DNA from: Deltaproteobacteria bacterium
GTDB taxonomy: Bacteria; Myxococcota_A; UBA9160; SMWR01
Reading direction: 5' to 3'
NCBI GenBank assembly: GCA_019313605.1
Contig: JAFDAW010000004.1
Location: 1-34,503, forward strand
Length of the DNA: 34,503 nt
Shown: positions 11,446 to 34,418 of the stretch, in pieces
Layout of the letters: each line of letters opens with the position of its first letter
Numbering within the stretch: the first letter of the stretch is position 1
Position numbers and translations under genes: made by a program
Notes under the pieces: generated by a model
What the model saw: only the letters and a program-made list of their open reading frames with translations
The model's database searches: none
What the model was told of the DNA's origin: nothing

Positions 11446-11682
11446 GTCGCTCCTCGGCCGGCGCTGTACACGGCGCCGGATCCCTATCCCTACCATTATT
11501 GCACGCCAAAGTCATTAATGGACGTCGAAGTCGCCTGTTCCTGAACCGCCGTACGGCCGCACCTCCGCCAGCGCGCAATTGCCCCGAGTTCGGCGAGCCC
11601 CTACCTTGGTTTCCGATCCTCTTTTCTGGCCCCTCGTTCTGGGTGGCTAGGCCTTGACTGCCCCACCAGAGTTTTCTAAACA

Positions 11683-11710
11683 GACAAACAGATCTTTAGA
11701 TCCGTTTATC
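11683..11710. promoter_or_regulatory. Operator-like inverted repeat in the rrf2-1 / HCO divergent intergenic region
   Basis: GACAAACAGATC-TTTA-GATCCGTTTATC. Identical at 22 of 28 positions to the palindrome upstream of nirS (20321-20348). It lies just downstream of a possible promoter: TTGACT 11654-11659, 17-nt spacer, TAAACA 11677-11682. Confidence 0.5.
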
Positions 11711-11773
11711 GTTATCCGATATTGCGGGCCGAGGATCTGCTGTGCAGCACACCAACCCGCCTCGAGGATCGAG

Positions 11774-13402: not shown

Positions 13403-13927
13403 ATGAGTATCTACAACCCGCCCGAAGGATGGCTCCAAGCTCCGAAAGGGCCCGAACGCCTCTGGATCGGTCTCGCGCTCATCTGGTGCATCGTGATGTC
13501 GCTCGCGATGCCGTACTGGCACTTCTACGGCAAACAGAACGCTTCAGGCGAGTCCTACAGGGTTTCCGCCGTCGACTATGGCACCCGTGTCCGACAGTTC
13601 GTCGAAGCAAACACGGTCGGAGAGGCATCCGGCATCCCGATCGTCGAGATCCCGCCGGGCGGCGATGGCTATCTGCTCGCGCGGATGTGGAGCTTCTACC
13701 CGGTCATCAAGATGAAGATGGGGCAGACCTACCGCCTGCACATCTCATCGATGGACCTTCAACACGGCTTCTCGCTCCAGCCGCTGAACATGAACTTTCA
13801 GGTGCTACCGGGCTATGACCACGTGCTGACCATCACACCGACCAGCACGGGTGTCTTCCCGATCATCTGCAACGAATTCTGCGGAATCGGACATCACATG
13901 ATGACCGGCCGCATCATCGTCGAATAG
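13403..13927 (+). CDS. HCO subunit II with complete CuA centre
   Basis: 174 aa with one TM helix and a cupredoxin domain. All CuA ligands are present: H(GFS)-x34-CNEFCGIGHHMM, i.e. H...C-x3-C-x3-H-x2-M. GGAGG RBS. Confidence 0.9.
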   Translation: MSIYNPPEGWLQAPKGPERLWIGLALIWCIVMSLAMPYWHFYGKQNASGESYRVSAVDYGTRVRQFVEANTVGEASGIPIVEIPPGGDGYLLARMWSFYPVIKMKMGQTYRLHISSMDLQHGFSLQPLNMNFQVLPGYDHVLTITPTSTGVFPIICNEFCGIGHHMMTGRIIVE

Positions 13928-13936
13928 GAGACTCTC

Positions 13937-15658
13937 ATGGCCAGCGCAGTCGAAAGCCTTCCCATCTTGGGAAATCACCCGACCGATCAGGTCCGAGCCT
14001 GCGACACGACGACACTGCCGGTCTGTCTGACAGCCCAGAAGTTCATCAAGCTGCACGCGGTTGCAGCAGTCGTCTTCCTGTTGATCGGCGGAATCGCGGC
14101 GCTGACCCTCGGGCTGACCCGATGGCCCGCCGTGCATCTGCTCGACGCACAGTGGTATTACCGCCTGCTCACGCTCCACGGCCTCAACATGTTGATCTTC
14201 TGGATCCTCAATTTTGAGATTGCCGTGCTCTACTTTGCGTCAACCGTGCTCTTGAATACCCGGCTCGCTTCGAAGAGCGCCGCGTGGGTCGGTCTGGTGA
14301 TGATGACCGTCGGAGCGATCATGGTTGATGCGGCGATCTTCGGAGGCAAAAGCGATGTGCTGATGACCTCCTACGTTCCGCTCAAGGCGAGCCCGTGGTT
14401 CTACCTCGGGATCATCCTCGTCGCCGTCGGCACACTGGTGGGCGTGATCAACTACTTCGCGACGATCTACATCGCGAAGCGAGATCAAACCTACAAGGGT
14501 TCGGTGCCGCTGGTGGTCTTCGGCGCCACCGCCGCCGCAATCATCGCGGTCGTCACGCTGCTTCACGGTGCGGTCGTGATGATCCCGACCCTGCTTTGGT
14601 CAATGGGAATCATCGAAAATATCGATCCAGCGTGGTACCGGATTACCTGGTGGGGGCTCGGCCACATGTCCCAGCAGGTCAACGTCTGCGCGATGGTTTC
14701 GATCTGGTATCTGCTCGGAACGCTGACGGTCGGCTCCAAGCCCCTGAACCAGGCTGTTTGTCGCGGCGCCTTCGTGCTCTACATCCTCTTCATCAACGTC
14801 GCGTCCGCCCATCACCTGCTGGTGGACCCCGGAACCGGATCCGTCTGGAAGATCTGGAATACCTCCTACGCGATGTATCTCGCGGTGCTCGCGTCGATGA
14901 TTCACGGATTCACGGTGCCGGCTTCGATCGAAGTCGCGATGCGCAAGAAGGGCTTCAATCGGGGGCTCTTCGGTTGGCTTGCGAACGCCCCCTGGAGCAA
15001 TCCCGGATTCTCGGGCTTCTTCCTCTCACTCGTGATCTTCGGCTTCGGCGGAGGCATCACGGGCGTCACACTGGGCACGCAACAGATCAACATCATGGCC
15101 CACAACACGCTGCGCATCCCCGGTCACTTCCACGTGACGGTGGTCGGTGGCACGACGTTGGCCTTCATGGCGATCACCTACTACATCGTTCCGCTGATCT
15201 TCCAGAAGGACTTCTACGCAAAGGCACTGTGCCGAATCCAGCCCTATCTGTTTGGAGGTGGGATCACCTTGATGGCGCTCGGCATGTCGTTTGCGGGTTC
15301 CTATGGCGTGCCGCGCCGGCATTGGGACATCGAGTTCACGGGCGGCCTGTTCGCGACCGGATTCGACGCGGGTGCGCACGTGATGCTCGGGATCATGGGA
15401 GTCGGTGCGGTGATCGCGTTCCTCGGCTTGCTCCTCTACTGCCTGCTGGTCGTCGCGGCCGTGTTCTTCGGTCGCCCGGTCGAAGGCAAGCCGATGGAGG
15501 CCTGGAACGAAGAGCCGCGAGGACAGATCGACGCCGAGGAGGTGGACGAGCACAAGACGCCGGGCACCCTGGTAATCGTGTTCGTCTTCCTGACAGCGTT
15601 TGCGGTCTACTACTTCGCGAATTGGATGTGGCTCAGCGATCTCTGGGAGGTTCGCTAG
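13937..15658 (+). CDS. B-family-like heme-copper oxidoreductase subunit I with Tyr->Gln at the cross-link position (NO-reductase-like)
   Basis: 573 aa. Landmarks: H81 (LTLHGLNMLIFW), CuB H243 in WWGLGHMSQQVNV, H292/H293 (ASAHHLLVDPG), H397/H399 (HNTLRIPGHFHVTVVGG), and GLFGWLANAPWSNPGF as in ba3-type enzymes. The residue at H+4, Tyr in O2 reductases, is Gln247 (14675-14677). Confidence 0.9.
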   Translation: MASAVESLPILGNHPTDQVRACDTTTLPVCLTAQKFIKLHAVAAVVFLLIGGIAALTLGLTRWPAVHLLDAQWYYRLLTLHGLNMLIFWILNFEIAVLYFASTVLLNTRLASKSAAWVGLVMMTVGAIMVDAAIFGGKSDVLMTSYVPLKASPWFYLGIILVAVGTLVGVINYFATIYIAKRDQTYKGSVPLVVFGATAAAIIAVVTLLHGAVVMIPTLLWSMGIIENIDPAWYRITWWGLGHMSQQVNVCAMVSIWYLLGTLTVGSKPLNQAVCRGAFVLYILFINVASAHHLLVDPGTGSVWKIWNTSYAMYLAVLASMIHGFTVPASIEVAMRKKGFNRGLFGWLANAPWSNPGFSGFFLSLVIFGFGGGITGVTLGTQQINIMAHNTLRIPGHFHVTVVGGTTLAFMAITYYIVPLIFQKDFYAKALCRIQPYLFGGGITLMALGMSFAGSYGVPRRHWDIEFTGGLFATGFDAGAHVMLGIMGVGAVIAFLGLLLYCLLVVAAVFFGRPVEGKPMEAWNEEPRGQIDAEEVDEHKTPGTLVIVFVFLTAFAVYYFANWMWLSDLWEVR

Positions 15659-16633: not shown

Positions 16634-18793
16634 ATGGCACCGCCGGATACCACGCGCACGCCACTCAGCGTAGAATCGACGGCGGGTGGCGCGGGCGCGC
16701 GGCCATCGTCCGTGCGGGGTGTCGAGGGCGCACCAAACGATTTCGAATCGCCGCCGAGTGAGTCGCCGCTGCCCAAAGGAATCCTGCGTCAACTCGACAA
16801 GGGCTTCATCTATCTCGATCGCCTGCTCGCGCGCTGCGTCTCCAGCTCGCTGAACCCGATGCTTCACACCGGCGCGATCGCGGTGACAGCACTGTTCATC
16901 GCGACGGTGTCGGGCATCGTGCTGCTGATCTGGTACAAGCCCAGCGTCCACATGGCCTACGAATCGCTCGATGCAATGTCGCGATCTCCGCTCGGGTCGG
17001 GCCTGGTGCGTTCACTGCATCGATACAGCTCCGATGCGGCGGTTCTCTTCGGCTTAATCCACGCGTTTCGGGTTTTCTTCGAGCGGCGCTTCGACGGTGC
17101 GCGTTGGCTCGCGTGGGTGACCGGGGCGATCATGATGGGGCTGCTCTGGTTCATCGGCTGGACGGGCTATTGGTTGGTCTGGGATCTGCGCGCCCAATCC
17201 GTCGCGGTCGGCAGCGCAAAGATGTTGGACGTGCTCCCCATATTCACCGATCCGCTGAGTCGCTCCTTCGTTACGGATGAGAGCGTCAATTCCCTGCTCT
17301 TCTTCGTGGTCTTCTTCATCCACATGATCATTCCGCTCGCGATGGTGGTCGTGATGTGGCTGCACATCACCCGCCTCGCGCGCGCCCGCTACCTGACCAG
17401 CAAGGTGATGACGATCTGGGTGGTGGCACTGTTGCTCTTGATCTCCATCGCGTATCCGGCGACCAACGAAGCCCCCGCTCAGATGACTGCAAATGCCGAA
17501 TACTTCACGATGGATTGGTGGTACCTCTTCCCGATGCCGCTCATCGATCGGCTGAGTGCGGGAGCACTCTGGGGTCTGCTGATCGTCGGAAGCGCGGTCT
17601 CACTCGCGATCCCCTGGTTGTTGGCGAAAAAGCGCAAGCGGCCCGCTTCGGTGGTCGCCTCGCGCTGCAACGAATGCAAGAAGTGTTATACGGATTGCCC
17701 TTACGAGGCGATCGAAATGGTCGCGCGCACGGACGGAAACGACCGCTACCTCACCCAGGCTTCGGTGATCGATTCCAAGTGCGTCGCGTGTGGCATTTGC
17801 GCGGGATCGTGTGACACGGTGGGGATCGGTCTGGACTGGTTCTCGAGCATCGAGCAGCGAAGACTCATCGAATCGTGGATGAAGCAGGCCGAGCAAGCGC
17901 GAGAAACCGTTCACCTCGCTTTCGTCTGCGCGGAATCCGCGGGGGCGAAACTCGAGATCGATCCAGTCACCGGCCTCTGTGCCGAACTTCCCGGCTACCG
18001 CGCGCTGCGCGTTCCGTGTGCGGGTTGGGTCCAGCCGCTGATGATCGAACGTGCAATCCGACAGGGAGCCAGCGGCGTGTTGGTCGTAAGCTGCCCGCCC
18101 GATCGATGCATGTACCGCGAAGGCGCCGAGTGGGAGCGCCAGCGAATCGAGGGCCTCCGCGAACCCGCACTGCGCGTCGACAAGCTCGAGCCTGGGCAGG
18201 TACAGCTCGTAGCGCTCGATCGCACGCGCAAGGCGGACCTGATTCGCACGGCAGAGCGTTTTCGCACGGGCGAAGAGTCGCTTCAGACCCCGAGCCGCCC
18301 GCGCGCTCTCCACGCGGTGTCGGCAACGGTCTTGCTGATCGCATGTGCGGGAATACTCGGCCTGGGGAGTGATTTCGGTTACACGGCGCCCGGCATCGAC
18401 GGTTCCGAGTTCGTCGTGAGCCTGAAGCACCCGGGCCTGGCCAGCGAGAACTGCCGTGACCTCACGCCGGAAGAACTCGCGTCGACACCCATCCATATGC
18501 GCAAGGAGCGTGTCTGCGAGCGGATGCGGCCACCCGTTCGCCTTCGAGTGACCATCGATGGCACCACTGCACTCGAGACCAGCATTGCGCCGTCGGGCAT
18601 CTGGGAGGACGGCAACAGCGTGGCCGTCGAACGAATTCCGGTCGAGCCGGGTGAGCACCGCGTGAGCGTGGCGATCGGCGAGACAGTGGACCCCGACGAG
18701 TGGAACTTCGGCGAGGAGCAGACGATCACCTTTACCGATGAATCCCGCCGCGTCGTCGTCTTCGACCGCGTCGCGGGCTTCACCTGGCACTGA
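16634..18793 (+). CDS. Fusion protein: di-heme cytochrome b + 2x[4Fe-4S] ferredoxin + MvhD/FlpD-like domain + TM helix + C-terminal domain of unknown function
   Basis: 719 aa. Cytochrome b signatures: two H-x13-H pairs (SLHRYSSDAAVLFGLIH and IHMIIPLAMVVVMWLH), WFIGWTGYWLVW, and a PEWYF-like MDWWYLFP. Then CNECKKCYTDCP ... CVACGICAGSC. Then an MvhD/FlpD-like segment (FVCAESAG...VPCAGWV...VVSCPPDRCMY). Then TM AVSATVLLIACAGILGLG and a ~150-aa tail. Confidence 0.8.
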   Translation: MAPPDTTRTPLSVESTAGGAGARPSSVRGVEGAPNDFESPPSESPLPKGILRQLDKGFIYLDRLLARCVSSSLNPMLHTGAIAVTALFIATVSGIVLLIWYKPSVHMAYESLDAMSRSPLGSGLVRSLHRYSSDAAVLFGLIHAFRVFFERRFDGARWLAWVTGAIMMGLLWFIGWTGYWLVWDLRAQSVAVGSAKMLDVLPIFTDPLSRSFVTDESVNSLLFFVVFFIHMIIPLAMVVVMWLHITRLARARYLTSKVMTIWVVALLLLISIAYPATNEAPAQMTANAEYFTMDWWYLFPMPLIDRLSAGALWGLLIVGSAVSLAIPWLLAKKRKRPASVVASRCNECKKCYTDCPYEAIEMVARTDGNDRYLTQASVIDSKCVACGICAGSCDTVGIGLDWFSSIEQRRLIESWMKQAEQARETVHLAFVCAESAGAKLEIDPVTGLCAELPGYRALRVPCAGWVQPLMIERAIRQGASGVLVVSCPPDRCMYREGAEWERQRIEGLREPALRVDKLEPGQVQLVALDRTRKADLIRTAERFRTGEESLQTPSRPRALHAVSATVLLIACAGILGLGSDFGYTAPGIDGSEFVVSLKHPGLASENCRDLTPEELASTPIHMRKERVCERMRPPVRLRVTIDGTTALETSIAPSGIWEDGNSVAVERIPVEPGEHRVSVAIGETVDPDEWNFGEEQTITFTDESRRVVVFDRVAGFTWH

Positions 18794-19767: not shown

Positions 19768-20157
19768 CTAATCCGAACTGGGCGGTGATCCGGACTTCGC
19801 GTCTTTGATCGGAGGATCGGTGGCGTGCTCCAGCAGTGAGCCGTCTGCCGCGTATCGATAGGTGTCTTCGCGGATGACATCGCCGCGTTTGTATTCGAGA
19901 CAGCGGACGACGCGTTCGATTTCGTCGTAGAGAACTTCGTAGTAGCGGTAGAGCTTGAAAACCTCTTCGTAGTTTCGCTCGACGCCGATGTCCCGTACGG
20001 GGCCGCTTTCGACTAATTCATCCGAGTAGTAGGAGACTCCGGCGCGGCTCGTTTCGGGGCGAGCCGATGCAGGGACGGCCAGCGCGCAAGGGGCCAATAC
20101 CAGGCCGGCGGCCAGGGCCGCTCTCAAACTCAAAAAGGCCGAATTCAGTCGATTCAT
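19768..20157 (-). CDS. Small secreted protein of unknown function
   Basis: 129 aa from the ATG at 20157 (GGAG 9 nt upstream). Signal peptide MNRLNSAFLSLRAALAAGLVLAPCALAVPASA. The mature part is Tyr/Glu/Arg-rich, and I recognise no family. Confidence 0.5.
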   Translation of the reverse strand: MNRLNSAFLSLRAALAAGLVLAPCALAVPASARPETSRAGVSYYSDELVESGPVRDIGVERNYEEVFKLYRYYEVLYDEIERVVRCLEYKRGDVIREDTYRYAADGSLLEHATDPPIKDAKSGSPPSSD

Positions 20158-20318
20158 TTTCGGATTCTCCACGCTGTATCAACATGGGATGATTCGCATA
20201 TACCGGCCACTGGTTCACAGCAATAATCGGCCCCGCGGGGCATCCAGATCATCTAACCACGTGAAACGCACGCTCAAGCGTTTAGAGCACGATTCCGCTT
20301 TAGATTAGCCCAAATTAT

Positions 20319-20350
20319 TCGATAAAAAGATCTAGAGATCTTTTTATCGA
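20319..20350. promoter_or_regulatory. Perfect 15-2-15 inverted repeat upstream of nirS (candidate Rrf2 operator)
   Basis: TCGATAAAAAGATCT-AG-AGATCTTTTTATCGA. It is AT-rich in a high-GC genome and lies 178 nt upstream of the nirS ATG. The core GATAAAAAGATC-N4-GATCTTTTTATC resembles 11683-11710. Confidence 0.6.
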
Positions 20351-20527
20351 GAAGCTAGCATCGAAAGATTGACGGAGCCCCATGCGTCCCCTCGACGGCC
20401 GCGGACGTGGCTCCATTCGAGCCCTCCGTGGGGGTTCGAGACTTAATGAAATGGCGTCGCTCATTGGGTTCGTCAGCCGCGAGAGTCGCGGCCAGCGACC
20501 CGGCAGTTCGGTCGAGGAGGAGAATTC

Positions 20528-22189
20528 ATGAGGCGTGTTCGCGCTTCGGTTCATCGATTGTCGCAACAGCCCGATTGGTACAAAGCGTTTCCGGGAATTC
20601 ACTGGCTCGTACTGATCAGCTTGACGTTCGTGCTGGCCGGCACCGCGCCCGCCGCAACGGCTCCCACTCTGAGCGAAAAAGAGATGGCGGACGCGGAGTT
20701 CATCTACTTCGACCGCTGCTCGGGATGTCACGGTGCGCTGCGCAAGGGAGCGACCGGGCCGAACATCGCTGACGAAGCCATGCTCAAGAAGCCGCTCAGC
20801 GAACTCGAGACGACCATCTTCGAAGGCACCGACGCGGGCATGCCGGGCTGGGGCCGAACCGGCGAACTCACCACCGAAGAGTCGGCGCTGATGGCCAGGT
20901 ATGTGCAGATTCCCGCTCCGACACCGCCCGAGATGGGGCTCAAGGCCATGAAGGCGACCCACAAGCTCTACGTGCCGGTGGCGGATCGCCCGAGTAAACC
21001 CCAACACAAGCGGGACATCGAAAACTACTTCGGAGTCATCCTGCGCGATGTTGGCCAGGGCGCGATCATCGACGGCGACACCAAGGAACTCGTCAGCATC
21101 CACGAAACTGGGCACGCCGTCCACATCTTTCGCGCTTCTGCGACCGGCCGCTACTTCTACACGATCGGGCGCGACGGCAAGGTCACGCTGATAGATCTCT
21201 ACGAGAAGAAGCCGAAGGTCGTCGCCGAATCCCGCGTGTGTCTGGACGCGCGTTCGATCGAAGTTTCGAAGTACAAAGGACCCAAGGGCGACTTCGTCGA
21301 CAAGTACGCGCTGGTGGGTTGTTACTGGCCGCCGCAGATGGTGGTGCTCGACGGGCAAACCCTGGAACCAATCAAGGTCATCTCGACCCGGTCTTCAACC
21401 TACGACACCAACGAGTATCACCCGGAGCCGCGCGTAGCGACGATCATCGCATCCCACCACGCACCCGAGTGGGTCGTCGCGATCAAGGAAACGGGCATGG
21501 TCTGGTTGGTGGATTACTCCGACCTGAACAACCTGAGCATGACCCAGATCGCAACCGAGCGATTCCTACACGACGGAGGTTTCGACGCGACGGGACGCTA
21601 TCTGCTGATCGCCGCCAACATGCGCGACCAGATGGTCGTCGTCGACACCAAGGAGCGGAAGTTCGTCACCAAGTTCGAGACGGGCACCAAGCCGCATCCC
21701 GGCCGCGGAGCCAACTGGGTCGATCCCGAGTACGGACCGGTCAGCGCGACCACCCACCTGGGTGAGGGCATGATCGTCGTATACGGATCGGATCCCGAGG
21801 GCCATCCGGAGCACGCCTGGAAGGTGGTGCGCGAAGAGGAGACCGGAGGACCCGGACTTTTCTTGAAGACCCATCCCAAGAGCGACTACATCTGGACCGA
21901 TGCCACGCTCTCCAAGGAAGAGGGCGCCAATCAGCAGATCTGCGTGTTCAAGAAGGCCGACTTCGCTGCGGGCGCTCATTGTTGGCAGGCCGCCGATCAC
22001 GGGAAGGTCGTGCACTTCGAATACAACAAGGCGGGCGACGAAGTCTGGGCCGCCGTCTGGGACAAAGAAGGTGAGCTGATCATCTACGACGACAAGACGC
22101 TGAAAGAGAAGGCACGAATCAAGGCGGATTGGTTGGTCACACCGACGGGCAAGTGGAACGTCTACAACACGGTTCACGACATCTACTAA
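20528..22189 (+). CDS. nirS: Cytochrome cd1 nitrite reductase
   Basis: 553 aa. Strong RBS (GAGGAGGAG), signal peptide, heme c site FDRCSGCHGALRKGATGPNI, then a d1-type eight-bladed propeller domain. Confidence 0.95.
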   Translation: MRRVRASVHRLSQQPDWYKAFPGIHWLVLISLTFVLAGTAPAATAPTLSEKEMADAEFIYFDRCSGCHGALRKGATGPNIADEAMLKKPLSELETTIFEGTDAGMPGWGRTGELTTEESALMARYVQIPAPTPPEMGLKAMKATHKLYVPVADRPSKPQHKRDIENYFGVILRDVGQGAIIDGDTKELVSIHETGHAVHIFRASATGRYFYTIGRDGKVTLIDLYEKKPKVVAESRVCLDARSIEVSKYKGPKGDFVDKYALVGCYWPPQMVVLDGQTLEPIKVISTRSSTYDTNEYHPEPRVATIIASHHAPEWVVAIKETGMVWLVDYSDLNNLSMTQIATERFLHDGGFDATGRYLLIAANMRDQMVVVDTKERKFVTKFETGTKPHPGRGANWVDPEYGPVSATTHLGEGMIVVYGSDPEGHPEHAWKVVREEETGGPGLFLKTHPKSDYIWTDATLSKEEGANQQICVFKKADFAAGAHCWQAADHGKVVHFEYNKAGDEVWAAVWDKEGELIIYDDKTLKEKARIKADWLVTPTGKWNVYNTVHDIY

Positions 22190-22206
22190 CCGAATTCGAA
22201 AGCAAG

Positions 22207-22237
22207 AACCCGCCCGGCTTCGCGCCGGGTGGGTTTT
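22207..22237 (+). terminator. Intrinsic terminator after nirS
   Basis: Stem AACCCGCCCGGC / GCCGGGTGGGTT (one G-U pair) with loop TTCGC, running into TTTT. It begins 18 nt after the nirS stop. Confidence 0.7.
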
Positions 22238-22274
22238 CGATCCGCTCCTCAATGGACGGAAAGTAGGAGGTTCC

Positions 22275-22922
22275 ATGGTTTCCAAAAGCGTTTCTGACCG
22301 CAGGCTGATCCGCCCGTTTCTCGGCCGCTCCGCGATGGGCTTTGCTCTTCTGGTACTCGCGTTTCTGATTCCGAATTGGGCTACCGCCAATGGACAGCAC
22401 GCTTTCGTTGGCTACCAGAAGTGCAGGACCTGCCATAAGAAGACAGAGATCGGCAATCAATACGGCGCCTGGCTCGAATCCAGACACGCGAAGGCCTACG
22501 AGACGCTCGGAACCGAGAAGGCGAAGAAGTGGGGCGCCGAAGCCGGCGTAGACAATCCCCAAACTGACGACCGCTGCATCAAGTGTCATTCGACGGCTCA
22601 CGGCGTTCCGGACGAAAGGGTCTCGAGGAAATTCGATCGGACGGCCGGCGTGCAATGCGAGTCGTGCCACGGCGCGGGTAAGGACTACAAGAAGAAGAAG
22701 ATCATGATGGACCGCGACAAGGCGCTCGAGAAAGGCCTGATCATACCGACCGCGGAACTCTGCACCGGATGCCACAACGACGAGAGTCCCGCATGGGATG
22801 AGAAGGCCTACACGCTGACCGATGGAAGCACGGCCGGATTCGACTTCGAGCAGGCAGTGAAAAAGATCGCTCACCCAGTTCCCGAAGGCTACGATCCAAG
22901 CGCTACTGGAGGGGCTGACTGA
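22275..22922 (+). CDS. Periplasmic tetraheme c-type cytochrome (c554-like family)
   Basis: 215 aa. AGGAGG RBS, signal peptide, four CxxCH motifs (CRTCH, CIKCH, CESCH, CTGCH). Confidence 0.8.
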   Translation: MVSKSVSDRRLIRPFLGRSAMGFALLVLAFLIPNWATANGQHAFVGYQKCRTCHKKTEIGNQYGAWLESRHAKAYETLGTEKAKKWGAEAGVDNPQTDDRCIKCHSTAHGVPDERVSRKFDRTAGVQCESCHGAGKDYKKKKIMMDRDKALEKGLIIPTAELCTGCHNDESPAWDEKAYTLTDGSTAGFDFEQAVKKIAHPVPEGYDPSATGGAD

Positions 22923-22924
22923 GA

Positions 22925-23545
22925 ATGGCGGGCGACGATCACGATTTAGACGGCGATCGTCACCCTCCCATTCAGCTCACGATCTGGGCGGTGATCGCTC
23001 TCGCGGTCGTCGTCATCGCGGGGCTCTTCACGGTTCGACTCGAGCACCAGCCCGAGACGACACGCGACTATCCGCCCCGGCCGCAGATCGCGGACGGCGA
23101 GGCGATCCTGCTGCCTGCTCCCGAGATCCTCGATGACTATCTGCCCTGCAACGACTGCCATGACGATGTGACACGAGAAGAGGGGCCGGTCCCGCGCGAA
23201 CTCGAATTCGAACACGAAGACACGAAGCTCGCGCATGGAAACCTCTGGTGCCGGCACTGCCACGACGCCGTGGACCCGAACAACCTCCGCCTGGCTGACG
23301 CGTCTTTGGTTCCTTTCGAAGACTCCTGGAAGCTCTGCACCCAATGTCACGGCAAGAAGCTTCCGGAGTGGCGCGCGGGGGTTCATGGCAAGGTGACCGG
23401 AAATTGGAGGGGCGATCGGGAGTACGTGACCTGCGTCTTCTGCCACGAGCCCCATACACCGCCGTTCGTGCCCATCGAAGGAGAGCCGAGGCCCAGGCGC
23501 CCCGAGGAAATCGTATTGCGGACAGAGCCCCTAGGAGAAGAGTGA
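22925..23545 (+). CDS. Membrane-anchored tetraheme c-type cytochrome (cytochrome c3/ActA/NrfB-like partner of the NrfCD-type module)
   Basis: 206 aa. N-terminal TM helix LTIWAVIALAVVVIAGLFTV. Four CxxCH motifs (CNDCH, CRHCH, CTQCH, CVFCH). It lies immediately upstream of the NrfC-like gene. Confidence 0.75.
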   Translation: MAGDDHDLDGDRHPPIQLTIWAVIALAVVVIAGLFTVRLEHQPETTRDYPPRPQIADGEAILLPAPEILDDYLPCNDCHDDVTREEGPVPRELEFEHEDTKLAHGNLWCRHCHDAVDPNNLRLADASLVPFEDSWKLCTQCHGKKLPEWRAGVHGKVTGNWRGDREYVTCVFCHEPHTPPFVPIEGEPRPRRPEEIVLRTEPLGEE

Positions 23546-23546
23546 A

Positions 23547-24415
23547 GTGGGAATTTTCAGACGGAACAAAGAAGCGCGAGCGCCGAAAGATGGCGCACCG
23601 AAGGAAAGCTCGCGCCGCGACTTCCTCAAGACAGCTGCGACCGTCGGAGCGGGAGCCGCGGTTGGCGCGCCCGCCATCGCGAGCGCGATGGATTTCGACT
23701 TCGAAACCTTCATGCAAAAGAACTTCCGCGAGCTCTCGGATGAGGAGCTGCAAGGGGTCATCGAGCGACTCGAGCGCAAGTACTCGGATAAGTACGGCAA
23801 GGACGTCAGCATGTCGGCCATCGGTCCGATGGACGGCGTGCTCTACGGCTACGGGTTGGACATCTCACGCTGCATCGGTTGCCGGAAATGCGTGTCCGCG
23901 TGCGTGGTTATTACGAGCACAAGGAGGTTCCCGCAGAGGGGAAGTTCTACGTCCCGATCGCCTGCCAGCAATGCGAGGATGCGCCGTGTACTACGGTCTG
24001 CCCGACTGGCGCGACCTGGCAAGAATCCGACGGGATCATCGTGATCGACTACGACTGGTGCATTGGGTGTCGCTACTGCATGGCGGCGTGCCCCTACGGC
24101 GCGCGCCACTTCAACTGGGGCGAGCCCAATCTTCCGGCTGAAGACGTCAACCCGAACATGCACATCCTTGGCAACAAGCCGCGCACGCGAGGCGTGGTCG
24201 AGAAATGCACGTTCTGTATCCAACGGGTGCGCGAGGGCCGCATGCCGGCTTGCCACGAAGCCTGCCCGGTCGGCGCGCGCAAGTTCGGAAACCTGCTCGA
24301 TCCGGATAGCGAAATCCGATACCTGCTGGACCACAAGCGGACCTTCGTATTGAAAGCAGAGCTCGAGACCCACCCGAAGTTCTTCTATTTCTGGGGAACG
24401 GAGGGGCGGAGTTGA
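23547..24415 (+). pseudogene. NrfC/PsrB/ActB-like Tat-exported 4x[4Fe-4S] protein with a frame disruption near 23904-23908
   Basis: The frame-0 ORF (23547-24044) gives the Tat signal SRRDFLKTAATVGAGAAV and cluster 1, [11 protein letters not shown]. The remaining clusters ([30 protein letters not shown]...CHEACP) are in the frame-2 ORF (23879-24415). Total length is 869 nt (3n+2), so one nucleotide appears to be missing. Confidence 0.8.
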
Positions 24416-24461
24416 GGCAGCAGCGAGAATCCGTTCGAACGGCGCGACTTCGAGGGGCATC

Positions 24462-25706
24462 GTGCTGATCCGCAACCTGAAGCTCTTCGCCCACTTCGTC
24501 AGAGGAAGCCTTCTCGCTGTCGCCAGCGGTAGCAGGGGTTACTACATCTGGCTGCTGGCATTGGGGATCCTGATCGCGCTCGGCGCGACCGCATATGGCA
24601 ATCAGCTCACCCACGGACTGATCACTTCACACATGCGCGACCAGGTTTCCTGGGGATTCTACATCGGAAATTTCGCGTTTCTGGTCGGGGTGGCGGCGGC
24701 AGCCGTCGTTCTGGTCGTTCCCGCCTACGTCTACAATTGGGGACCGATCCGCGACGTCGTCTTGATTGGCGAGTTGGCTTCAGTTGCGGCGATCGTCATG
24801 TGCATGCTCTTCGTCACGGTAGACCTCGGTCGGCCCGAGTTCGTCTGGCATCTGATGCCGATCGTCGGAACACCGAACTTCCCGCACTCGCTGCTGACCT
24901 GGGACATTCTCGTCCTGAATCTCTATTTCCTGCTCAACTGGTTCGTCGTCACCTACATCCTGTTCACGGCCTTCAAGGGCCGAAAATACAACCCGCGAAT
25001 CTTGTTGCCGATCATCTTCCTCTCGATTCCGTTCGCGATCGGAATCCACACCGTGACGGCGTTTCTCTTCACGGGCCTCAAGGGCCGCGCCTTCTGGCAC
25101 ACCGCTTTGCTGGCGCCTCGCTTCATCGCGGGTGCGTTCTGCTCGGGGCCCGCATTGATCTTCTTGATCTTCCGGGTGCTGCGAAAGTTCGGCCGAATGC
25201 AGATTTCGGACACGGCGCTCTTCAAGATCGGCGAATTGCTCGCCTACGCGATGGCGATCAATCTGTTCTTCGTCGGGACGGAAGTCTTCACCGAATTCTA
25301 CGCCCAGACTGCCCACACCGTTCACGCCCGCTACCAGTGGTTCGGACTCCACGGAATGTCGAGCATCGCCATCTACACCTGGGCCGCGCTCTGCTTCAAT
25401 GTGCTGGCCTTGATCATCTTCATGGTGCCGAAATTCAGGCTCAACATGAACATCCTCACTTTGGGTTGCGTATTCTCGTTTTCCGGGATCTACATCGAAA
25501 AGGGAATGGGACTACTGCTGCCGGGATTCACACCGGACTCACTGGGGGAAATCTACGAGTACACACCGAGCCTGAACGAGGTGACGGTCGGCATCGGCAT
25601 CTGGGCCGTCGGAGCGTTGCTCTTCACATGGATGGCGCGAGTCGCGATCGCCATCACGGCCGGTGACCTGCGCCACGCGACTGTGAGTCGGCAAATCGGG
25701 CCCTAG
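24462..25706 (+). CDS. NrfD/PsrC/ActC-family integral membrane quinone-interacting subunit
   Basis: 414 aa from a GTG start (GAGGGG upstream). About 10 TM helices with an N-terminal region typical of the NrfD family (YYIWLLALGILIALGATAYGNQLTHGL..SHMRDQVSWGFYIGNFAF). Confidence 0.85.
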   Translation: MLIRNLKLFAHFVRGSLLAVASGSRGYYIWLLALGILIALGATAYGNQLTHGLITSHMRDQVSWGFYIGNFAFLVGVAAAAVVLVVPAYVYNWGPIRDVVLIGELASVAAIVMCMLFVTVDLGRPEFVWHLMPIVGTPNFPHSLLTWDILVLNLYFLLNWFVVTYILFTAFKGRKYNPRILLPIIFLSIPFAIGIHTVTAFLFTGLKGRAFWHTALLAPRFIAGAFCSGPALIFLIFRVLRKFGRMQISDTALFKIGELLAYAMAINLFFVGTEVFTEFYAQTAHTVHARYQWFGLHGMSSIAIYTWAALCFNVLALIIFMVPKFRLNMNILTLGCVFSFSGIYIEKGMGLLLPGFTPDSLGEIYEYTPSLNEVTVGIGIWAVGALLFTWMARVAIAITAGDLRHATVSRQIGP

Positions 25707-25713
25707 CAGGATG

Positions 25714-26163
25714 CTAGGGGTCGCTCGGTTTCGCGAAGCGGCGAACGAAGGCGACCATGTGCCAGATCTTGTCATCCGTCCAGGCGTAATCGGACTCTGG
25801 ACCAAACGCGGGCATCGCGCAGCGCTCCCCGCCGCCCATCAAGATCTGGTAGAAGAGTTCTCCATCGGTTCGGCTCGCCATGTATTTGGCATCCGTCAAG
25901 TTTGCGGGCCTGACGAGTTCGCCGGACGCGGCCGCCTCGGCGCCGCTACCCGTCCCATCGATCCCGTGGCAACGGGAGCACTTTCCCTTGAATTGCCGCT
26001 GGTAGTAGCGGATCTCGCTCTCTTCTAGCGTCACCGGATTCTTCGCGGCCTTCACGTCGTCGGGTACGTCATCTCGAGCGGATACGGTGGTGCACGCGAT
26101 TCCGGCGAACCAGGTTGTCAGGGCGAACGCTGCGAAGCACTGAACGGCGCTGCTCTTCGACAT
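25714..26163 (-). CDS. Monoheme class I c-type cytochrome (NirC/c55x-like)
   Basis: 149 aa with a signal peptide, a single CSRCHG heme site and a distal Met region CAMPAFG. GGAGGA RBS. It lies 27 nt downstream of nirN on the same strand. Confidence 0.7.
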   Translation of the reverse strand: MSKSSAVQCFAAFALTTWFAGIACTTVSARDDVPDDVKAAKNPVTLEESEIRYYQRQFKGKCSRCHGIDGTGSGAEAAASGELVRPANLTDAKYMASRTDGELFYQILMGGGERCAMPAFGPESDYAWTDDKIWHMVAFVRRFAKPSDP

Positions 26164-26190
26164 AGCGAGTCCTCCGCAATTCTCAGGCGC

Positions 26191-27636
26191 TCAGTAGGGC
26201 GCTCGGGTCTTGTTGGCGGCGTTGTACTTTCCGACGGGCATCGCGTAGGGAATTCTCTGGACCTCCGCGAGCGTCGTGGAATCGTACACCACGACGGCTC
26301 CGTCCTCGTGCCAGATGCTCACGAGGGCCTTGGCGCCGTCGGCGGTAAATTCGACGTGCATCGACTTCTTGCCCGCCTCCGGGATCAGCGTGCGATCGAC
26401 GAGCTCGAGCGTGCGCTTGTCGACCAACTGGATCGCCTCGGTGTTGGAATCGATCCAGAGGTAGGGAGTCCCCGGATGGGTGCGCGTAAAATAGCCGGAG
26501 CCGACTAGCGGAAGCTGCGCGACCACTTTGAACTCATCCATGTCGATGATCGAGAGCCGCGGCACACCCATGTGATTAAACGCCGCGTGAAGTACGCCAT
26601 TGCGGCGGAAGAAGCTCGCGGAAAACAGGTGGGGCAGGCCCTCGGCGCCCAGCGTGGCGAGAATCTCGTCTCGCTCGAAGTCGTAGAGGATCAGCCGGCT
26701 GCCCTTGCGCGAACTCGCGACGAGTCGGGTCGTTCCCGGGATGAAGATGAAATCCTCGAACGGCTCGGAAAGCTCGACGAGCTGGAGTTTCAATTCGGGG
26801 TAGCTGATGAAATAGAGCTGCGGCATATCGCGGAGCGTGACCATGAAGCGTTGGCTGCGGGGAACCTGGTAGACGGCGCTCGGCTGACCGGGAAGCGGGA
26901 AGATCGCGAGCGGTCGCAGGCGGCTGTCGAGAACGACGAGGCCCTGAGGCAGTTGGTTTGCTGCGGCGACGTATTTTCCATCAACCGAAACGGCAATATT
27001 TCGGGTGTTGACGCCGACCTTTACGCGTGTGCGAAGCGCGCCGCGGTCGAGATCGTAGTCGACGAGTGTCCCGTCGCGGGTGGCAACCAGCGCCTGATGC
27101 AGCGCTCGATCGAATTTGATGCCGCCGTGGATGCGACCGACCTCGAAGCGGTCGAGTTCTCGCAGACTGCTGCCATCGAGGACCGAGACGCTTCCCGAAC
27201 CGCGCTCGACGACGAGGATCAACTCCTCGCGTTTCACCGCGGCGGAAATCGCGCTGCCTTTGGGCTCCTCTTCGACGCGGCTCGCCTCGATATCCGCGAG
27301 CGACCAGCGGACTTCCTCTTCGGGTTGGCGGAACAACGCGACCAGCTCGCGCGCCTCGGCATTACTGATCTGATCGGAAAACGCGGGCATCTGGGTGGCG
27401 GGCAGGCCTTCGAGGATCGCAGTGACGAGCGCATCGTCCGGCTTGCGCGCGAGGGTCGTCTGGATGAGGGGAGGTCCGTAGCCGCCGTAGCGCCTCGCGC
27501 CGTGGCAGCGTGCGCATTTCAGCGCGTAGGTCACGGCGGCTTCGAATTCGGCCGCAGCCGGCTCCTCGGCGGCCTGCACCCACGCCGGCACCAGCGCAAA
27601 TGCGAGAATTCCGGCGATCCATCGGTTCAGCTGCAC
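26191..27636 (-). CDS. nirN: NirN-like cytochrome c + d1-propeller protein (dihydro-heme d1 dehydrogenase family)
   Basis: 481 aa from the GTG at 27636, preceded by AAGGAG with 6-nt spacing. Signal peptide VQLNRWIAGILAFALVPAWVQA, heme c site KCARCHG, then a cd1-type propeller. The 93 extra residues in the track ORF would overlap nirJ's start region and its upstream intergenic DNA, and look non-coding. Confidence 0.8.
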   Translation of the reverse strand: MQLNRWIAGILAFALVPAWVQAAEEPAAAEFEAAVTYALKCARCHGARRYGGYGPPLIQTTLARKPDDALVTAILEGLPATQMPAFSDQISNAEARELVALFRQPEEEVRWSLADIEASRVEEEPKGSAISAAVKREELILVVERGSGSVSVLDGSSLRELDRFEVGRIHGGIKFDRALHQALVATRDGTLVDYDLDRGALRTRVKVGVNTRNIAVSVDGKYVAAANQLPQGLVVLDSRLRPLAIFPLPGQPSAVYQVPRSQRFMVTLRDMPQLYFISYPELKLQLVELSEPFEDFIFIPGTTRLVASSRKGSRLILYDFERDEILATLGAEGLPHLFSASFFRRNGVLHAAFNHMGVPRLSIIDMDEFKVVAQLPLVGSGYFTRTHPGTPYLWIDSNTEAIQLVDKRTLELVDRTLIPEAGKKSMHVEFTADGAKALVSIWHEDGAVVVYDSTTLAEVQRIPYAMPVGKYNAANKTRAPY

Positions 27637-27772
27637 GCTCGGCTCCTTGGTTTCTGCCACCGCACTCTCTGGTATCAGACCCGCGGGGTCAATAGGCGGG
27701 GTGGTGAGGATTGGCCCCAAGACTGTGTAAGCTCCGACGCGAAATGGTCCAGCTGAATTCAGGGAATCCCAG

Positions 27773-28966
27773 ATGCTTCCGGTAACCGATCTCATCGAAG
27801 TCGCACTCGGCCGCTCCGAGATCGGCGACCTGAGCGCTCGCGCGCCGCGGCGCTTCGAAGCGGTCACCCGAGACACCCCGGTCGTGATCTGGAACATCTG
27901 TATGCACTGCAACATGCATTGCCCACACTGCTACGCGGCGGCGGTCCCCGAGCCGTCCCCAACCGACCTGACCCACGAGGAAGGCATCGATCTGCTCGAT
28001 CAGCTCGCAGATGCGGGCGTCCGGGTGGTGATCTTCAGCGGCGGCGAACCCCTGTTGCGCGCCGACGTTTTCGAACTGATCGCGCACGCGAAGCAGCGCG
28101 GCATCAGCCCGCAGCTCTCGACCAACGGCGTCTTGATCGACGAAGATGTCGCCAAACAACTGGCCGACACCGGAATCGCCTACGTGGGTATCAGCATCGA
28201 TGGCGTCGAGAGTTTCAACGACGCCTACCGCGGCCTGAGCGGCGGCTTCGATGCAGCACTCCACGGGCTGCGCAACGCCAAGGCCGCGGGAATGAAGACG
28301 GGGCTTCGCATGACGCTCTCGAAGCGCAACTTCGATCAGCTCGAATCGATGATCGATGTGGCGCGGGATGCACACGTCAACCGCTTTTACGTTTCGCATC
28401 TCGTCTACTCGGGGCGCGGATACAAGGTGGCGCACGAAGACCTGAACCGAGAACAGCAACGCGCCACCTTGGACTGGCTCTTCGAGAAAGCCGAGGCGCT
28501 GCTCGATCTCGATCCCGAGTTCAAGATCGTCACGGGATCGAACGACTCGGACGGCGTCTACCTGCTGCACTGGATCCGCGAGCGCCACGGCGAGGCGGCG
28601 GGCGCGAAGGTTCGCGAACTGCTGCTGCAGCGGGGCGGAAACTCCGCGGGTGAGCGCATCCTCAACGTCGATTCGCGCGGGCGCGTGCACCCAGATCAAT
28701 TTTGGCGCGCCGCGGTGCTGGGCGACATCCGGATCGAAAGCTTCGCAACCATCCTCGCACACCCCTTGCGCGATCAATTGGGCCGGCGACTCGAATATCT
28801 CACGGGCCGTTGTGGAACCTGTTCGGAACGAGAACTCTGTCGCGGCTCTCACCGCGAACGCGCGCTCGCATTTCATCGCGACCCCTGGGCGTCGGATCCC
28901 GCGTGCGTGATGGAAGATGCCGAGATTGCCGCGCCGAAACCGACTGGCCTGGAGGTCGCCGTATGA
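27773..28966 (+). CDS. nirJ: Radical SAM heme d1 biosynthesis protein NirJ
   Basis: 397 aa. Radical SAM motif CNMHCPHCY (CxxxCxxC) and a C-terminal SPASM-like Cys region (GRCGTCSERELCRGS). Its stop overlaps the nirF start (ATGA). Confidence 0.9.
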   Translation: MLPVTDLIEVALGRSEIGDLSARAPRRFEAVTRDTPVVIWNICMHCNMHCPHCYAAAVPEPSPTDLTHEEGIDLLDQLADAGVRVVIFSGGEPLLRADVFELIAHAKQRGISPQLSTNGVLIDEDVAKQLADTGIAYVGISIDGVESFNDAYRGLSGGFDAALHGLRNAKAAGMKTGLRMTLSKRNFDQLESMIDVARDAHVNRFYVSHLVYSGRGYKVAHEDLNREQQRATLDWLFEKAEALLDLDPEFKIVTGSNDSDGVYLLHWIRERHGEAAGAKVRELLLQRGGNSAGERILNVDSRGRVHPDQFWRAAVLGDIRIESFATILAHPLRDQLGRRLEYLTGRCGTCSERELCRGSHRERALAFHRDPWASDPACVMEDAEIAAPKPTGLEVAV

Positions 28967-33284: not shown

Positions 33285-34418
33285 ATGAAAACAATACTCT
33301 ACGCAATTCTCGCATCCACGATCGCGATGAGCACGGTTCCCGCACAAGCCGACAAACCGTCGAAAGCTGGCGGCCTGAAGCGTGTCAAACAGGAGATGGT
33401 CAAGCCGCCGATGCTGCCGAAGCACACCCAGAAGGCGAAGGGTGGCCCGAAGATCGTCGAAGTCGAACTCGTGGTTCGCGAACGCGAGATGACCATCGAC
33501 CCCCTCGGGACGACCATCCAGGCGTTGACATTCATGGGCAGCGTTCCGGCCCCGATCATCGTGGTTCACGAAGGCGACTACGTGGAGCTCACGGTCGTCA
33601 ACCCGAAGGGGGAGATTGAGGACGTGAGTAGTGTCGAAGGTTGGGAAGGAACTTCGACGAACATCATGAGCCACAACATCGACTTGCACGCGGTGACGGG
33701 CGCATTAGGGGGCGCGGGTATGACGCTGGTCGCACCCGGTCAAAAAGCGACGATTCGCTTCAAAGCGACGAAGTCCGGCGTGTTCGTCTACCACTGCGCG
33801 CCGGGAGGACCGATGATTCCCTACCACGTCGTTCAAGGCATGAACGGAGCGATCATGGTGTTGCCGAGAGATGGCTTGAAGGACGGCAAGGGAAATTCCC
33901 TGCATTATGATCGCGCCTACTACGTCGGTGAGCAGGACTACTACATCCCGAAGGGCCCGGATGGCAATTACAAGAAGTTCGATTCGCCGGCTGCCGCAAT
34001 GCCCGAAACGCTGGAAGTGATGAAGACCAACGAGCCGAGTCACGTCGTCTTCAACGGCGCGGTCGGGGCACTCACGGGTGAGAACTCGCTGACCGCAAAG
34101 GTTGGAGAGAGCGTTCTGTTCATCCATTCGCAAGCCAATCGCGACACCCGGCCGCATCTGATCGGCGGTCACGGCGATTACGTCTGGCAGTCGGGCTCGT
34201 TCGACGACGCACCGCAGACCAATCTGGAGACCTGGTTCATCGCTGGAGGCTCCGCGGGCGCGGCGCTCTACACCTTCCGGCAGCCGGGCCTTTACGTCTA
34301 CTTGAACCACAATCTGATCGATGCGGTCCTCAAGGGTGCGGCCGCACACGTGAAGGTCGAGGGTGAGTGGGACAACGATCTACTCGAGCAAATCTACAAG
34401 GCGGGCTCGATCGAATAA
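33285..34418 (+). CDS. nirK: Copper-containing nitrite reductase (class I NirK)
   Basis: 377 aa with a signal peptide. T1/T2 copper ligand motifs are present: [49 protein letters not shown]. Confidence 0.95.

Follow-up and report, generated by a model that had tools for sequence, protein, structure and literature searches.

How electrons reach cytochrome cd1 nitrite reductase (NirS) in bacteria that are known only from environmental sequences is the question raised by the locus described here. In Proteobacteria, the textbook supply of cytochrome cd1 runs from the bc1 complex to cytochrome c551 or azurin, or through NirT, and to our knowledge the electron supply of NirS is essentially unknown in the uncultured menaquinone-type lineages that hold much of the environmental nirS diversity. 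The stretch of DNA that we analyzed, called the window below, is a whole metagenome contig of 34,503 nucleotides (34.5 kb, about 61% GC; JAFDAW010000004.1, assembly GCA_019313605.1) from a deltaproteobacterium assigned to Myxococcota_A. Its nirS gene is followed on the + strand by four co-directional open reading frames (ORFs; 22275–22922, 22925–23545, 23547–24415, and 24462–25706), which encode a secreted c554-like tetraheme cytochrome c (cytA), a membrane-anchored tetraheme cytochrome c (cytB), an iron-sulfur (FeS) subunit, and an integral membrane subunit of the NrfD family. An earlier reading made from the sequence alone (the sequence-only reading) had placed the four genes in this way, and their positions, domains, and heme motifs agree with it. 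We propose, with a probability of roughly 55%, that cytB, the FeS subunit, and the membrane subunit form a menaquinol:cytochrome c oxidoreductase of the Cbc4 (CbcSTU)/DsrOP type, and that an uncultured Myxococcota-type lineage has recruited this enzyme to its nirS operon, along with a dedicated, soluble cytochrome of the tetraheme kind.

The proposal draws on the homology of the parts and on the linkage of the module to nirS (20528–22189, + strand; Pfam Cytochrom_D1 at 407.9 bits plus a Cytochrome_CBB3 domain). Related loci (numbered L) were surveyed by scanning one genome per species and mapping the window proteins by tblastn, with context look-ups of homologues added; naive ORF calling on the relatives was noisy, with antisense ORFs at high GC, and was used only for recurrent neighbor clusters. 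Conservation of the order nirS-cytA-cytB-FeS-NrfD reaches across 12 distinct populations (the window with L003, L001, L006, L007, L008, L009, L011, L013, L087, L088, L090, and L092), over which the identity of the membrane subunit ranges from ∼64 to 100%, the lowest values being about 64 to 66%. In all 12 of them, cytA lies between nirS and cytB. The module is usually followed by a convergent cytochrome c gene and nirN, a pair found in L001, L003, L006, L087, L088, and L090, and then by nirJ, nirF, and nirDL, while a cluster resembling a nitric oxide reductase (NOR) often stands divergently upstream. When the membrane subunits are compared in a neighbor-joining tree, the modules that include the c554-like gene group on a long branch as a single clade, with 11 of its 14 members linked to nirS; judged from this tree, the c554-like cytochrome together with the core marks one Myxococcota-type clade.

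The product of cytA (215 residues) begins with a hydrophobic, signal-like segment and carries four CXXCH motifs, at residues 50, 101, 128, and 163. It matches the Pfam family Cytochrome_C554 (PF13435) at 65.3 bits (cutoff 20.8), and its residues 43 to 197 match the structure of Nitrosomonas cytochrome c554 (PDB 1bvb, E = 3e-8). It is a member of the c554 family rather than an orthologue of the Nitrosomonas protein, since it reaches only 49.7 bits against the NCBIfam equivalog of CycA (cutoff 400). Two loci, L091 and L094, keep nirS and cytA without the membrane module, the two genes being separated by 8 to 17 nt in both, and three others, L089, L012, and L021, combine cytA with the module with nirS not within reach; in L021, the flanking genes are one for an Rrf2 regulator and one that is nirJ-like. 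The gene thus keeps company with each of the two, nirS and the module, singly and also with the pair, so that cytA looks like an adaptor between NirS and the membrane module. As far as these gene orders tell, the hallmark of the nirS context is the c554-like cytA, which is kept after nirS even where the membrane module is missing.

The second cytochrome, cytB (206 residues), is CbcS-like. It is composed of one transmembrane segment (residues 19–37), a linker of ∼35 residues, and a heme domain of ∼110 residues, with CXXCH motifs at residues 75, 109, 138, and 170. The four motifs and four additional histidines (97, 104, 154, and 177) are invariant across 41 family members, which fits the all-bis-His CbcS and would provide the axial ligands of the four hemes. 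Identity to homologues from Desulfuromonadales and Geobacter is 32 to 40%, and reaches 42% (E = 1e-29) with a protein of Geobacter argillaceus (P0275, WP_145018703.1). The cytochrome upstream of the FeS gene has four CXXCH motifs in 76 of the 79 homologous loci. Window cytB does not match PF03264 (Cytochrom_NNT); a few family members carry precomputed matches to it. An AlphaFold2 model calculated with 40 homologues, with a view to an NrfH/CymA-like heme core, was unusable (mean predicted local distance difference test (pLDDT) 53, predicted template modeling score (pTM) 0.32).

The membrane subunit (414 residues, 10 transmembrane helices), in which the quinol site is presumed to lie, matches Pfam NrfD (PF03916) over residues 57 to 346 at 121.4 bits (cutoff 25.8) and carries no CXXCH motif. 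It passes the NCBIfam DsrP model (NF045798; 377.1 bits, cutoff 350), is far from QrcD (30 bits, cutoff 570), and finds no match in the NCBIfam NrfD equivalog. Its AlphaFold2 model has ten long helices (pLDDT 77.6, pTM 0.80), and the best Foldseek matches are ActC chains, aligned over the full length with a template modeling score of 0.75 to 0.79, followed by ActF at 0.58 to 0.62, at a sequence identity to ActC of 17 to 18%. By sequence comparison, the subunit is therefore best described as DsrP/CbcU-like, and by its modeled fold as ActC-like. DsrP has 10 transmembrane helices and has been grouped with ActC and ActF (PMC8076601), with which the ActC-like fold of the model agrees. The sequence-only reading had related the four genes to the quinol-interacting core shared by NrfBCD, DsrJOP, Qrc, and Alternative Complex III; the heme/FeS/NrfD core and the ActC-like fold bear this kinship out, but by sequence the membrane subunit sides with DsrP and not with NrfD, QrcD, or ActC. 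A protein search returned thousands of homologues of the membrane subunit. Those of Geothrix rubra and Anaeromyxobacter terrae score 405 to 427 bits on the DsrP model, and the model is passed at 383 to 427 bits outside any dsr context, Desulfuromonadales included (proteins P0077 and P0117; loci L037, L040, L080, L085, and L047). Because homologues from organisms that do not reduce sulfate also exceed the cutoff, the DsrP model spans a broader clade, and the public name DsrP on relatives such as P0077 and P0117 is probably an over-annotation.

The FeS subunit requires caution, because its gene is split into two frames in the window, where 103 nt are missing at 23908/23909. The deletion was called by alignment to L003, L004, L005, L006, and L001, with L003 and all more distant relatives as the reference. 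What is left are overlapping ORFs in different frames (23547–24044 and 23879–24415): a 5' fragment (23547–23908, + strand) with a twin-arginine translocation (Tat) signal and the first CxxCxxCxxxC motif, which runs on out of frame to 24044, and a 3' fragment (23909–24415, + strand) with the last three cysteine motifs of a 4x[4Fe-4S] protein of the NrfC/DsrO/CbcT type. The twin-arginine signal reads SRRDFLK (TAT_signal, 28.6 bits), and the 3' fragment matches Pfam Fer4_11 at 74 bits. The intact orthologue in L003 has 323 residues with 16 cysteines in four motifs; the deletion removes its residues 121 to 155 and shifts the frame past the first motif. The Tat-exported four-cluster protein of the sequence-only reading is thus recognizable by its signal and its Fer4_11 domain, but the window sequence as written cannot encode it. 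Among the NCBIfam profiles, the intact L003 protein ranks DsrO first, followed by QrcC, ArrB, TtrB, and NrfC. The DsrO score (NF045797) is 193.4 bits for L003 and 187.4 bits for the window fragment (cutoff 200), the QrcC score is 157 bits (cutoff 400), and that of NrfC is 119 to 121 bits (cutoff 377.6). PDB matches of the subunit are ArrB, PsrB, and ActB.

Whether the deletion is real decides whether the window copy of the module is alive, for if it is real this copy would be inactive, a risk that had been named from the sequence alone. A possible explanation, although not the one we favor, is accordingly that the module belongs to a decaying set of pseudogenes, with the nirS branch under relaxed selection given the NirK encoded in the same cluster (nirK, 33285–34418). 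Besides the 103 nt of the FeS gene, the window lacks 11 nt of nirF, both losses shifting the frame, and its sister contigs have private deletions of their own in the FeS gene (47 nt in L004, 114 nt in L005); in the window, L003, and L005, others of 11 to 69 nt affect nirJ and nirF. In total, eight private events of 11 to 114 nt were found in four near-identical contigs from sister samples (window 23909 and 29233; L003 12823 and 13952; L004 3298; L005 2674–2772, 7569, and 7807). Compared with the outgroup L006, every one of the eight is a loss of sequence; none has long junction homology, and two overlap at one site in nirF. In a more distant relative, L095 (GCA_003359175.1, 84% DNA identity), the counterpart of window positions 22991 to 25598 is lost through a 2.6-kb deletion at L095 7713–7721, which has erased the FeS gene entirely and reduced cytB and the NrfD gene, at its two ends, to stubs; nirS and nirJ of L095 are also called in fragments. 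Against decay, L003, from a sister Joint Genome Institute sample and the same population (1 mismatch over 8650 nt upstream of the junction), retains the 103 nt and an intact FeS gene. The events hit only the FeS gene, nirJ, and nirF, leaving nirS, cytA, cytB, the NrfD gene, and nirN free of deletions in the window and the sister contigs, and in all other lineages every gene is intact, the proteins being more alike than the DNA (for the NrfD subunit of L006, 93% against ∼89%). Contigs that are otherwise almost without point differences carry differing deletions at the same two hot spots, a pattern that an assembly or sequencing artefact explains somewhat better than independent fixations.

With a working FeS subunit, the proposed route from quinol to nitrite can be laid out. 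The NrfD-like subunit, with its 10 helices, would oxidize quinol on its periplasmic side, and the electrons would travel along the four [4Fe-4S] clusters carried by the Tat-exported FeS subunit to the membrane-anchored, all-bis-His cytB. From there, they would be handed to the secreted cytA, acting as a soluble shuttle, and finally to the heme c domain of NirS, where nitrite is reduced to NO. Domain content, cofactor motifs, topology signals, fold, CbcSTU-like homology, and gene linkages are established for the locus; from them, we infer that the proteins assemble into one complex, that electrons flow from quinol to cytochrome, that cytA donates to NirS, and that protons may be translocated via ActC-like half-channels. 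The first step is supported by the model of the membrane subunit, which shares the fold of ActC, the quinol-oxidizing subunit of Alternative Complex III.

The sequence-only reading had named both NirS and the CuA-type NOR as possible recipients of these electrons. The linkage to nirS in 12 populations speaks for the former, and the NOR-like cluster has a candidate partner of its own. This cluster comprises a very divergent COX1-like gene (11654–13219; COX1 40.7 bits, no NCBIfam match), a CuA-type COX2 gene (13403–13927) located between the two subunit I genes, a clearer COX1 gene (13937–15658; 219 bits), and SCO1. It is closed by a 719-residue fusion protein (16634–18793), which by its Pfam and NCBIfam domains combines an N-terminal ExtP/b6-like cytochrome b, two [4Fe-4S] clusters, and an FlpD/MvhD-like domain with a C-terminal transmembrane and unknown domain. 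The fusion occupies the same position after SCO1 in L003, L008, L009, L013, L087, L088, L091, and L095, and is plausible as a separate quinol-oxidizing partner of the CuA-type NOR, an arrangement of which we know no description. If the fusion is the quinol module of the NOR, the NrfD-type module more likely serves NirS. The layout of the NOR-like cluster, with an ORF of 36 to 51 residues, recurs in L087, L088, L090, L091, and L092.

Several observations weigh against a dedicated path to NirS. The core alone, at 50 to 56% identity, occurs in 66 loci with nirS not within 10 kb, in hosts from Acidobacteriota, Nitrospirota, Anaeromyxobacter, Planctomycetota, Desulfobacterota, and other groups, and the three c554-clade loci mentioned above also lack a nearby nirS; the core is consequently a general electron module and not a NirS-specific one. 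Co-occurrence with nirS, which had been put forward as a check, is seen in the 12 linked populations, but not within 10 kb in the 66 core-only loci. A strong hairpin separates nirS from cytA. The cytochrome b-FeS fusion and a monoheme cytochrome c (25714–26163) offer other routes, nap genes directly follow the module in L092, and there is the damage already described, the broken FeS gene of the window and the membrane module lost from L095 by deletion.

The hairpin (22206–22240, stem-loop 22206–22236, + strand) is GC-rich, with a 13-bp stem, a 5-nt loop, and a short U run, beyond which cytA starts after ∼38 nt, the distance at which the sequence-only reading had placed the module behind a nirS terminator. 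For the 95-nt spacer, the folding energy is −40.5 kcal/mol (z = −3.4), a value equaled by none of 200 shuffles, and a strong hairpin of differing sequence stands at the same position in L006, L007, L001, L008, and L090. It looks like an intrinsic terminator or an attenuator. A terminator scan of 20200–26300 returned 4 sites against 5.0 expected and did not flag this hairpin, and a sigma-70 promoter scan of the same region returned zero sites.

The breadth of the core leads to a rival explanation, according to which the module is a general, Cbc4-like periplasmic electron hub serving whatever periplasmic or extracellular acceptors are at hand (the CuA-type NOR, NirK, Nap, or multiheme cytochromes), and is adjacent to nirS merely as a resident of the denitrification island. 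Its spread over many phyla fits this, as do the variable neighbors of the core-only loci, namely two-component systems of the sigma54 type, a second module in tandem, genes of the Rieske/cytochrome b kind, and multihemes. So do L089, where the module and cytA lie amid multiheme and NHL-repeat proteins and molybdopterin enzymes, L012, where they lie amid NapC/NirT-like and tetratricopeptide repeat multihemes, the napDAGH genes directly downstream of the L092 module, and the presence in the window of both NirK and the CuA-type NOR-like enzyme. We nevertheless consider a mere residence unlikely, because 12 populations of the c554 clade have the module linked to nirS, with cytA invariably placed before cytB and after nirS, because cytA stays with nirS where the membrane module is absent, and because the NOR cluster owns its conserved cytochrome b-FeS fusion. 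Only one of the core-only loci, L057, has a c554-like gene.

Two side observations concern the surroundings of these modules. In Nitrospirota (L047, L084, L059, L078, and others), the tetraheme-FeS-NrfD module occurs in tandem duplicate, and the duplicated module adjoins hemL, more multiheme cytochromes, and a divergent set of Rieske, cytochrome b, and multiheme c genes. In L092 (9951–15097), the module is followed by a gene for a WD40 protein and then by napD-napA-napG-napH, so that it may stand at the junction of the nitrite and the periplasmic nitrate reductase clusters.

A very improbable alternative is that the module runs in reverse as a quinone reductase, conveying electrons from a periplasmic oxidation via the c554-like cytochrome and the anchored tetraheme to the quinone pool, on the model of c554 to cM552 to ubiquinone in Nitrosomonas or of the sulfate-reducer chain in which cytochrome c3 feeds menaquinone through QrcABCD; cytA shares homology with c554 of Nitrosomonas, and the order of cytA and an anchored tetraheme mirrors cycA-cycB of ammonia oxidizers. 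NrfD-type complexes that run toward quinone are known, such as Qrc (PMC8076601), and the multiheme and NHL-repeat proteins around the relatives in L089 could serve metal oxidation, but no periplasmic oxidizing enzyme (such as hydroxylamine oxidoreductase (HAO), hydrogenase, or formate dehydrogenase) is encoded in the window or the nirS-linked loci, the conserved neighbor NirS is a reductase that needs electrons, and the QrcD and QrcC scores (30 against 570 and 157 against 400) are far under their cutoffs.

Retaining the recruitment of a Cbc4/DsrOP-type oxidoreductase to nirS as the preferred reading, we may ask how far it replaces the usual respiratory chain. Neither a Rieske protein nor a cytochrome c1 is encoded in the 34.5-kb window, in line with the earlier remark that no bc1 complex is visible; that remark had, however, passed over the cytochrome b fusion at 16634–18793, which is another candidate for interaction with quinol. 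Among the window ORFs, none beside nirS encodes a donor of the nirM or azurin type. As had been claimed, the module comes without a catalytic partner and without ActDEF, for no molybdopterin domain and no ActD-, ActE-, or ActF-like protein was found among the window ORFs of at least 150 residues. A more far-reaching and tentative idea is that environmental Myxococcota-type denitrifiers run nitrite respiration via a complex III equivalent of their own, with no need of bc1 or Alternative Complex III for NirS. This equivalent could consist of a possibly proton-translocating, DsrP/ActC-like quinol oxidase and a CbcS-like tetraheme, delivering electrons to a c554-like cytochrome as the physiological donor of cytochrome cd1.

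As shown by Pfam and NCBIfam profile scans of the ORFs, the remainder of the window is filled by a denitrification island. It opens with an Rrf2 regulator and the NOR-like cluster (the divergent COX1-like gene, COX2, COX1, and SCO1), and continues with the cytochrome b-FeS-FlpD fusion, heme O synthase (ctaB), nirS, and the four module genes. On the opposite strand, the nirC-like monoheme cytochrome c gene (25714–26163, − strand; Pfam Cytochrome_CBB3 and Cytochrom_C) forms an operon with nirN (ORF 26191–27915; Pfam Cytochrom_D1, 190 bits). The module converges on this cytochrome gene, as noted before, and the stop codons of the two convergent genes are spanned by an 8-bp hairpin (25701–25719, strand unassigned); the 41-nt stretch that holds it (25690–25730) folds at −18.2 kcal/mol (z = −2.7) with no U run, and its function as a terminator is a guess. 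There follow nirJ, nirF, and nirDL, and finally a second Rrf2 regulator, SCO1, and nirK (TIGR02376, 461 bits against a cutoff of 296). An ORF of 134 residues with a signal-like N terminus and no Pfam match (19768–20172, − strand) lies between ctaB and nirS, and keeps its position in L001 (134 residues) and L003 (129 residues). The pair of nirS and nirK on one 34.5-kb contig is also seen in L001, L003, L008, and L011; in a published survey, the two genes occur together in only 5.3% of assemblies (PMC10999283).

Full-text literature searches found no description of such a module beside nirS or of a c554-like cytochrome as a partner of NirS, and gave only analogous "novel NrfD complexes" in other contexts, so the link of a Cbc4-like module to nirS appears undescribed. 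The building blocks and the three-gene core, in contrast, are already known from the NrfD superfamily, from Cbc4, and from the DsrOP-like/ActBC-like core. The nirS-c554-CbcSTU-like operon provides a concrete and testable electron path to NirS. If it is true, it would give a first physiological role to the very large Cbc4/"DsrOP-like" family and would represent a new class of NirS electron donor. A family of thousands of proteins, named in the databases "polysulfide reductase NrfD," "HybB-like," or, misleadingly, "DsrP," would thereby gain a physiological context. The energy yield of denitrification in these organisms hinges on the electrogenicity of the module, and the NirS clade that contains Myxococcota makes up 3 to 11% of nirS, in saltwater habitats (PMC10999283). 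For the contig studied here, the broken FeS gene is a caveat.

When compared with known systems, the cytB-FeS-NrfD core is, by homology and gene order, a member of a very large family built like Geobacter Cbc4 (CbcSTU). In G. sulfurreducens, Cbc4 consists of CbcS (GSU0068), CbcT (GSU0069), and CbcU (GSU0070), and is a putative menaquinol/quinone:cytochrome c oxidoreductase to which no role has been assigned (bioRxiv 10.1101/2025.04.14.648717). The three-gene order is the same, with a membrane-anchored tetraheme cytochrome c with a linker, a 4x[4Fe-4S] protein, and an integral membrane subunit, and the features of window cytB match the description of CbcS, the nearest sequence proxy for GSU0068-0070 being the Geobacter argillaceus protein. 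Of 79 related loci, 76 have the order cytB-FeS-NrfD, as does the window. Family members with the cytochrome-FeS-NrfD order occur in Geobacter, Geoalkalibacter, and Desulfuromonadales, and the tetraheme-FeS-NrfD order is found as a tandem duplicate in a Geobacter-like metagenome-assembled genome (GCA_021849045.1, L093). The core as such is therefore not the uncharacterized arrangement for which the sequence-only reading had taken it, being of Cbc4 architecture and widespread without nirS. Cbc4 differs in having neither a c554-like partner nor a link to nirS, and has been discussed for extracellular electron transfer to PpcA-type cytochromes.

DsrJOP of the DsrMKJOP complex likewise combines a cytochrome c, a Tat-exported FeS protein (DsrO), and a 10-helix NrfD-like subunit (DsrP), and the window proteins score best on the DsrP model, above its cutoff, and on that of DsrO. 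However, DsrJ is a triheme cytochrome whereas cytB is a tetraheme that finds no match in the DsrJ model, and the DsrO score is just under the cutoff. Genes for DsrM, DsrK, DsrAB, and DsrC are found neither in the 34.5-kb window nor beside the module in L001, L003, L087, L088, and L090. An identification with DsrJOP was rejected on the tetraheme nature of the cytochrome, the absence of dsrMK nearby, and the DsrO score. Alternative Complex III shares the ActC fold of the membrane subunit, an FeS domain in ActB that the FeS subunit matches, a multiheme cytochrome c with a membrane anchor, and the role of a quinol:cytochrome c oxidoreductase, which in the window is predicted. Unlike ActB, of about 1000 residues, the FeS subunit has 323 and lacks the molybdopterin-like B1 domain; cytB is a tetraheme against the pentaheme ActA, and ActD, ActE, and ActF are absent from the module operon, which contains no additional gene for a membrane or monoheme subunit.

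The NrfBCD proteins of the E. coli type, a periplasmic multiheme cytochrome, a four-cluster FeS protein, and NrfD, similarly carry quinol electrons to a periplasmic nitrite reductase. NrfA is nevertheless absent from the window, NrfC is matched at 119 to 121 bits against 377.6, and the NrfD equivalog is unmatched. NrfB is a soluble pentaheme, to which the anchored tetraheme cytB shows weak similarity (19.5–20.5 bits, cutoffs 166–184), and E. coli NrfD has 8 transmembrane helices (PMC8076601) against 10 in the window protein. QrcABCD differs in both comparable subunits (QrcD, 30 against 570 bits; QrcC, 157 against 400 bits), and no QrcA- or QrcB-like gene accompanies the module. In Nitrosomonas, a c554-family tetraheme gene (CycA) also directly precedes the gene of a membrane-anchored tetraheme (cM552, CycB), but there the electrons pass from HAO to quinone, HAO is absent from the window, and the likeness to cM552 is one of gene order.

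Quinol dehydrogenases beside denitrification reductases do have precedents in other families, NirT and the NapGH-type NosGH. In the nirSTBM cluster of Pseudomonas stutzeri, the gene for NirT, an anchored tetraheme quinol dehydrogenase, stands right after nirS, whose product it is thought to feed. The concept of a quinol dehydrogenase gene directly after nirS is the same, but NirT oxidizes quinol itself without FeS or NrfD proteins, whereas here this step is assigned to the NrfD-like subunit. NosGH of Wolinella succinogenes, which is of the NapGH rather than the NrfCD type and serves NosZ rather than NirS (PMC3475470), shares with the module of the window the principle of a dedicated quinol-oxidizing unit inside a denitrification reductase cluster.

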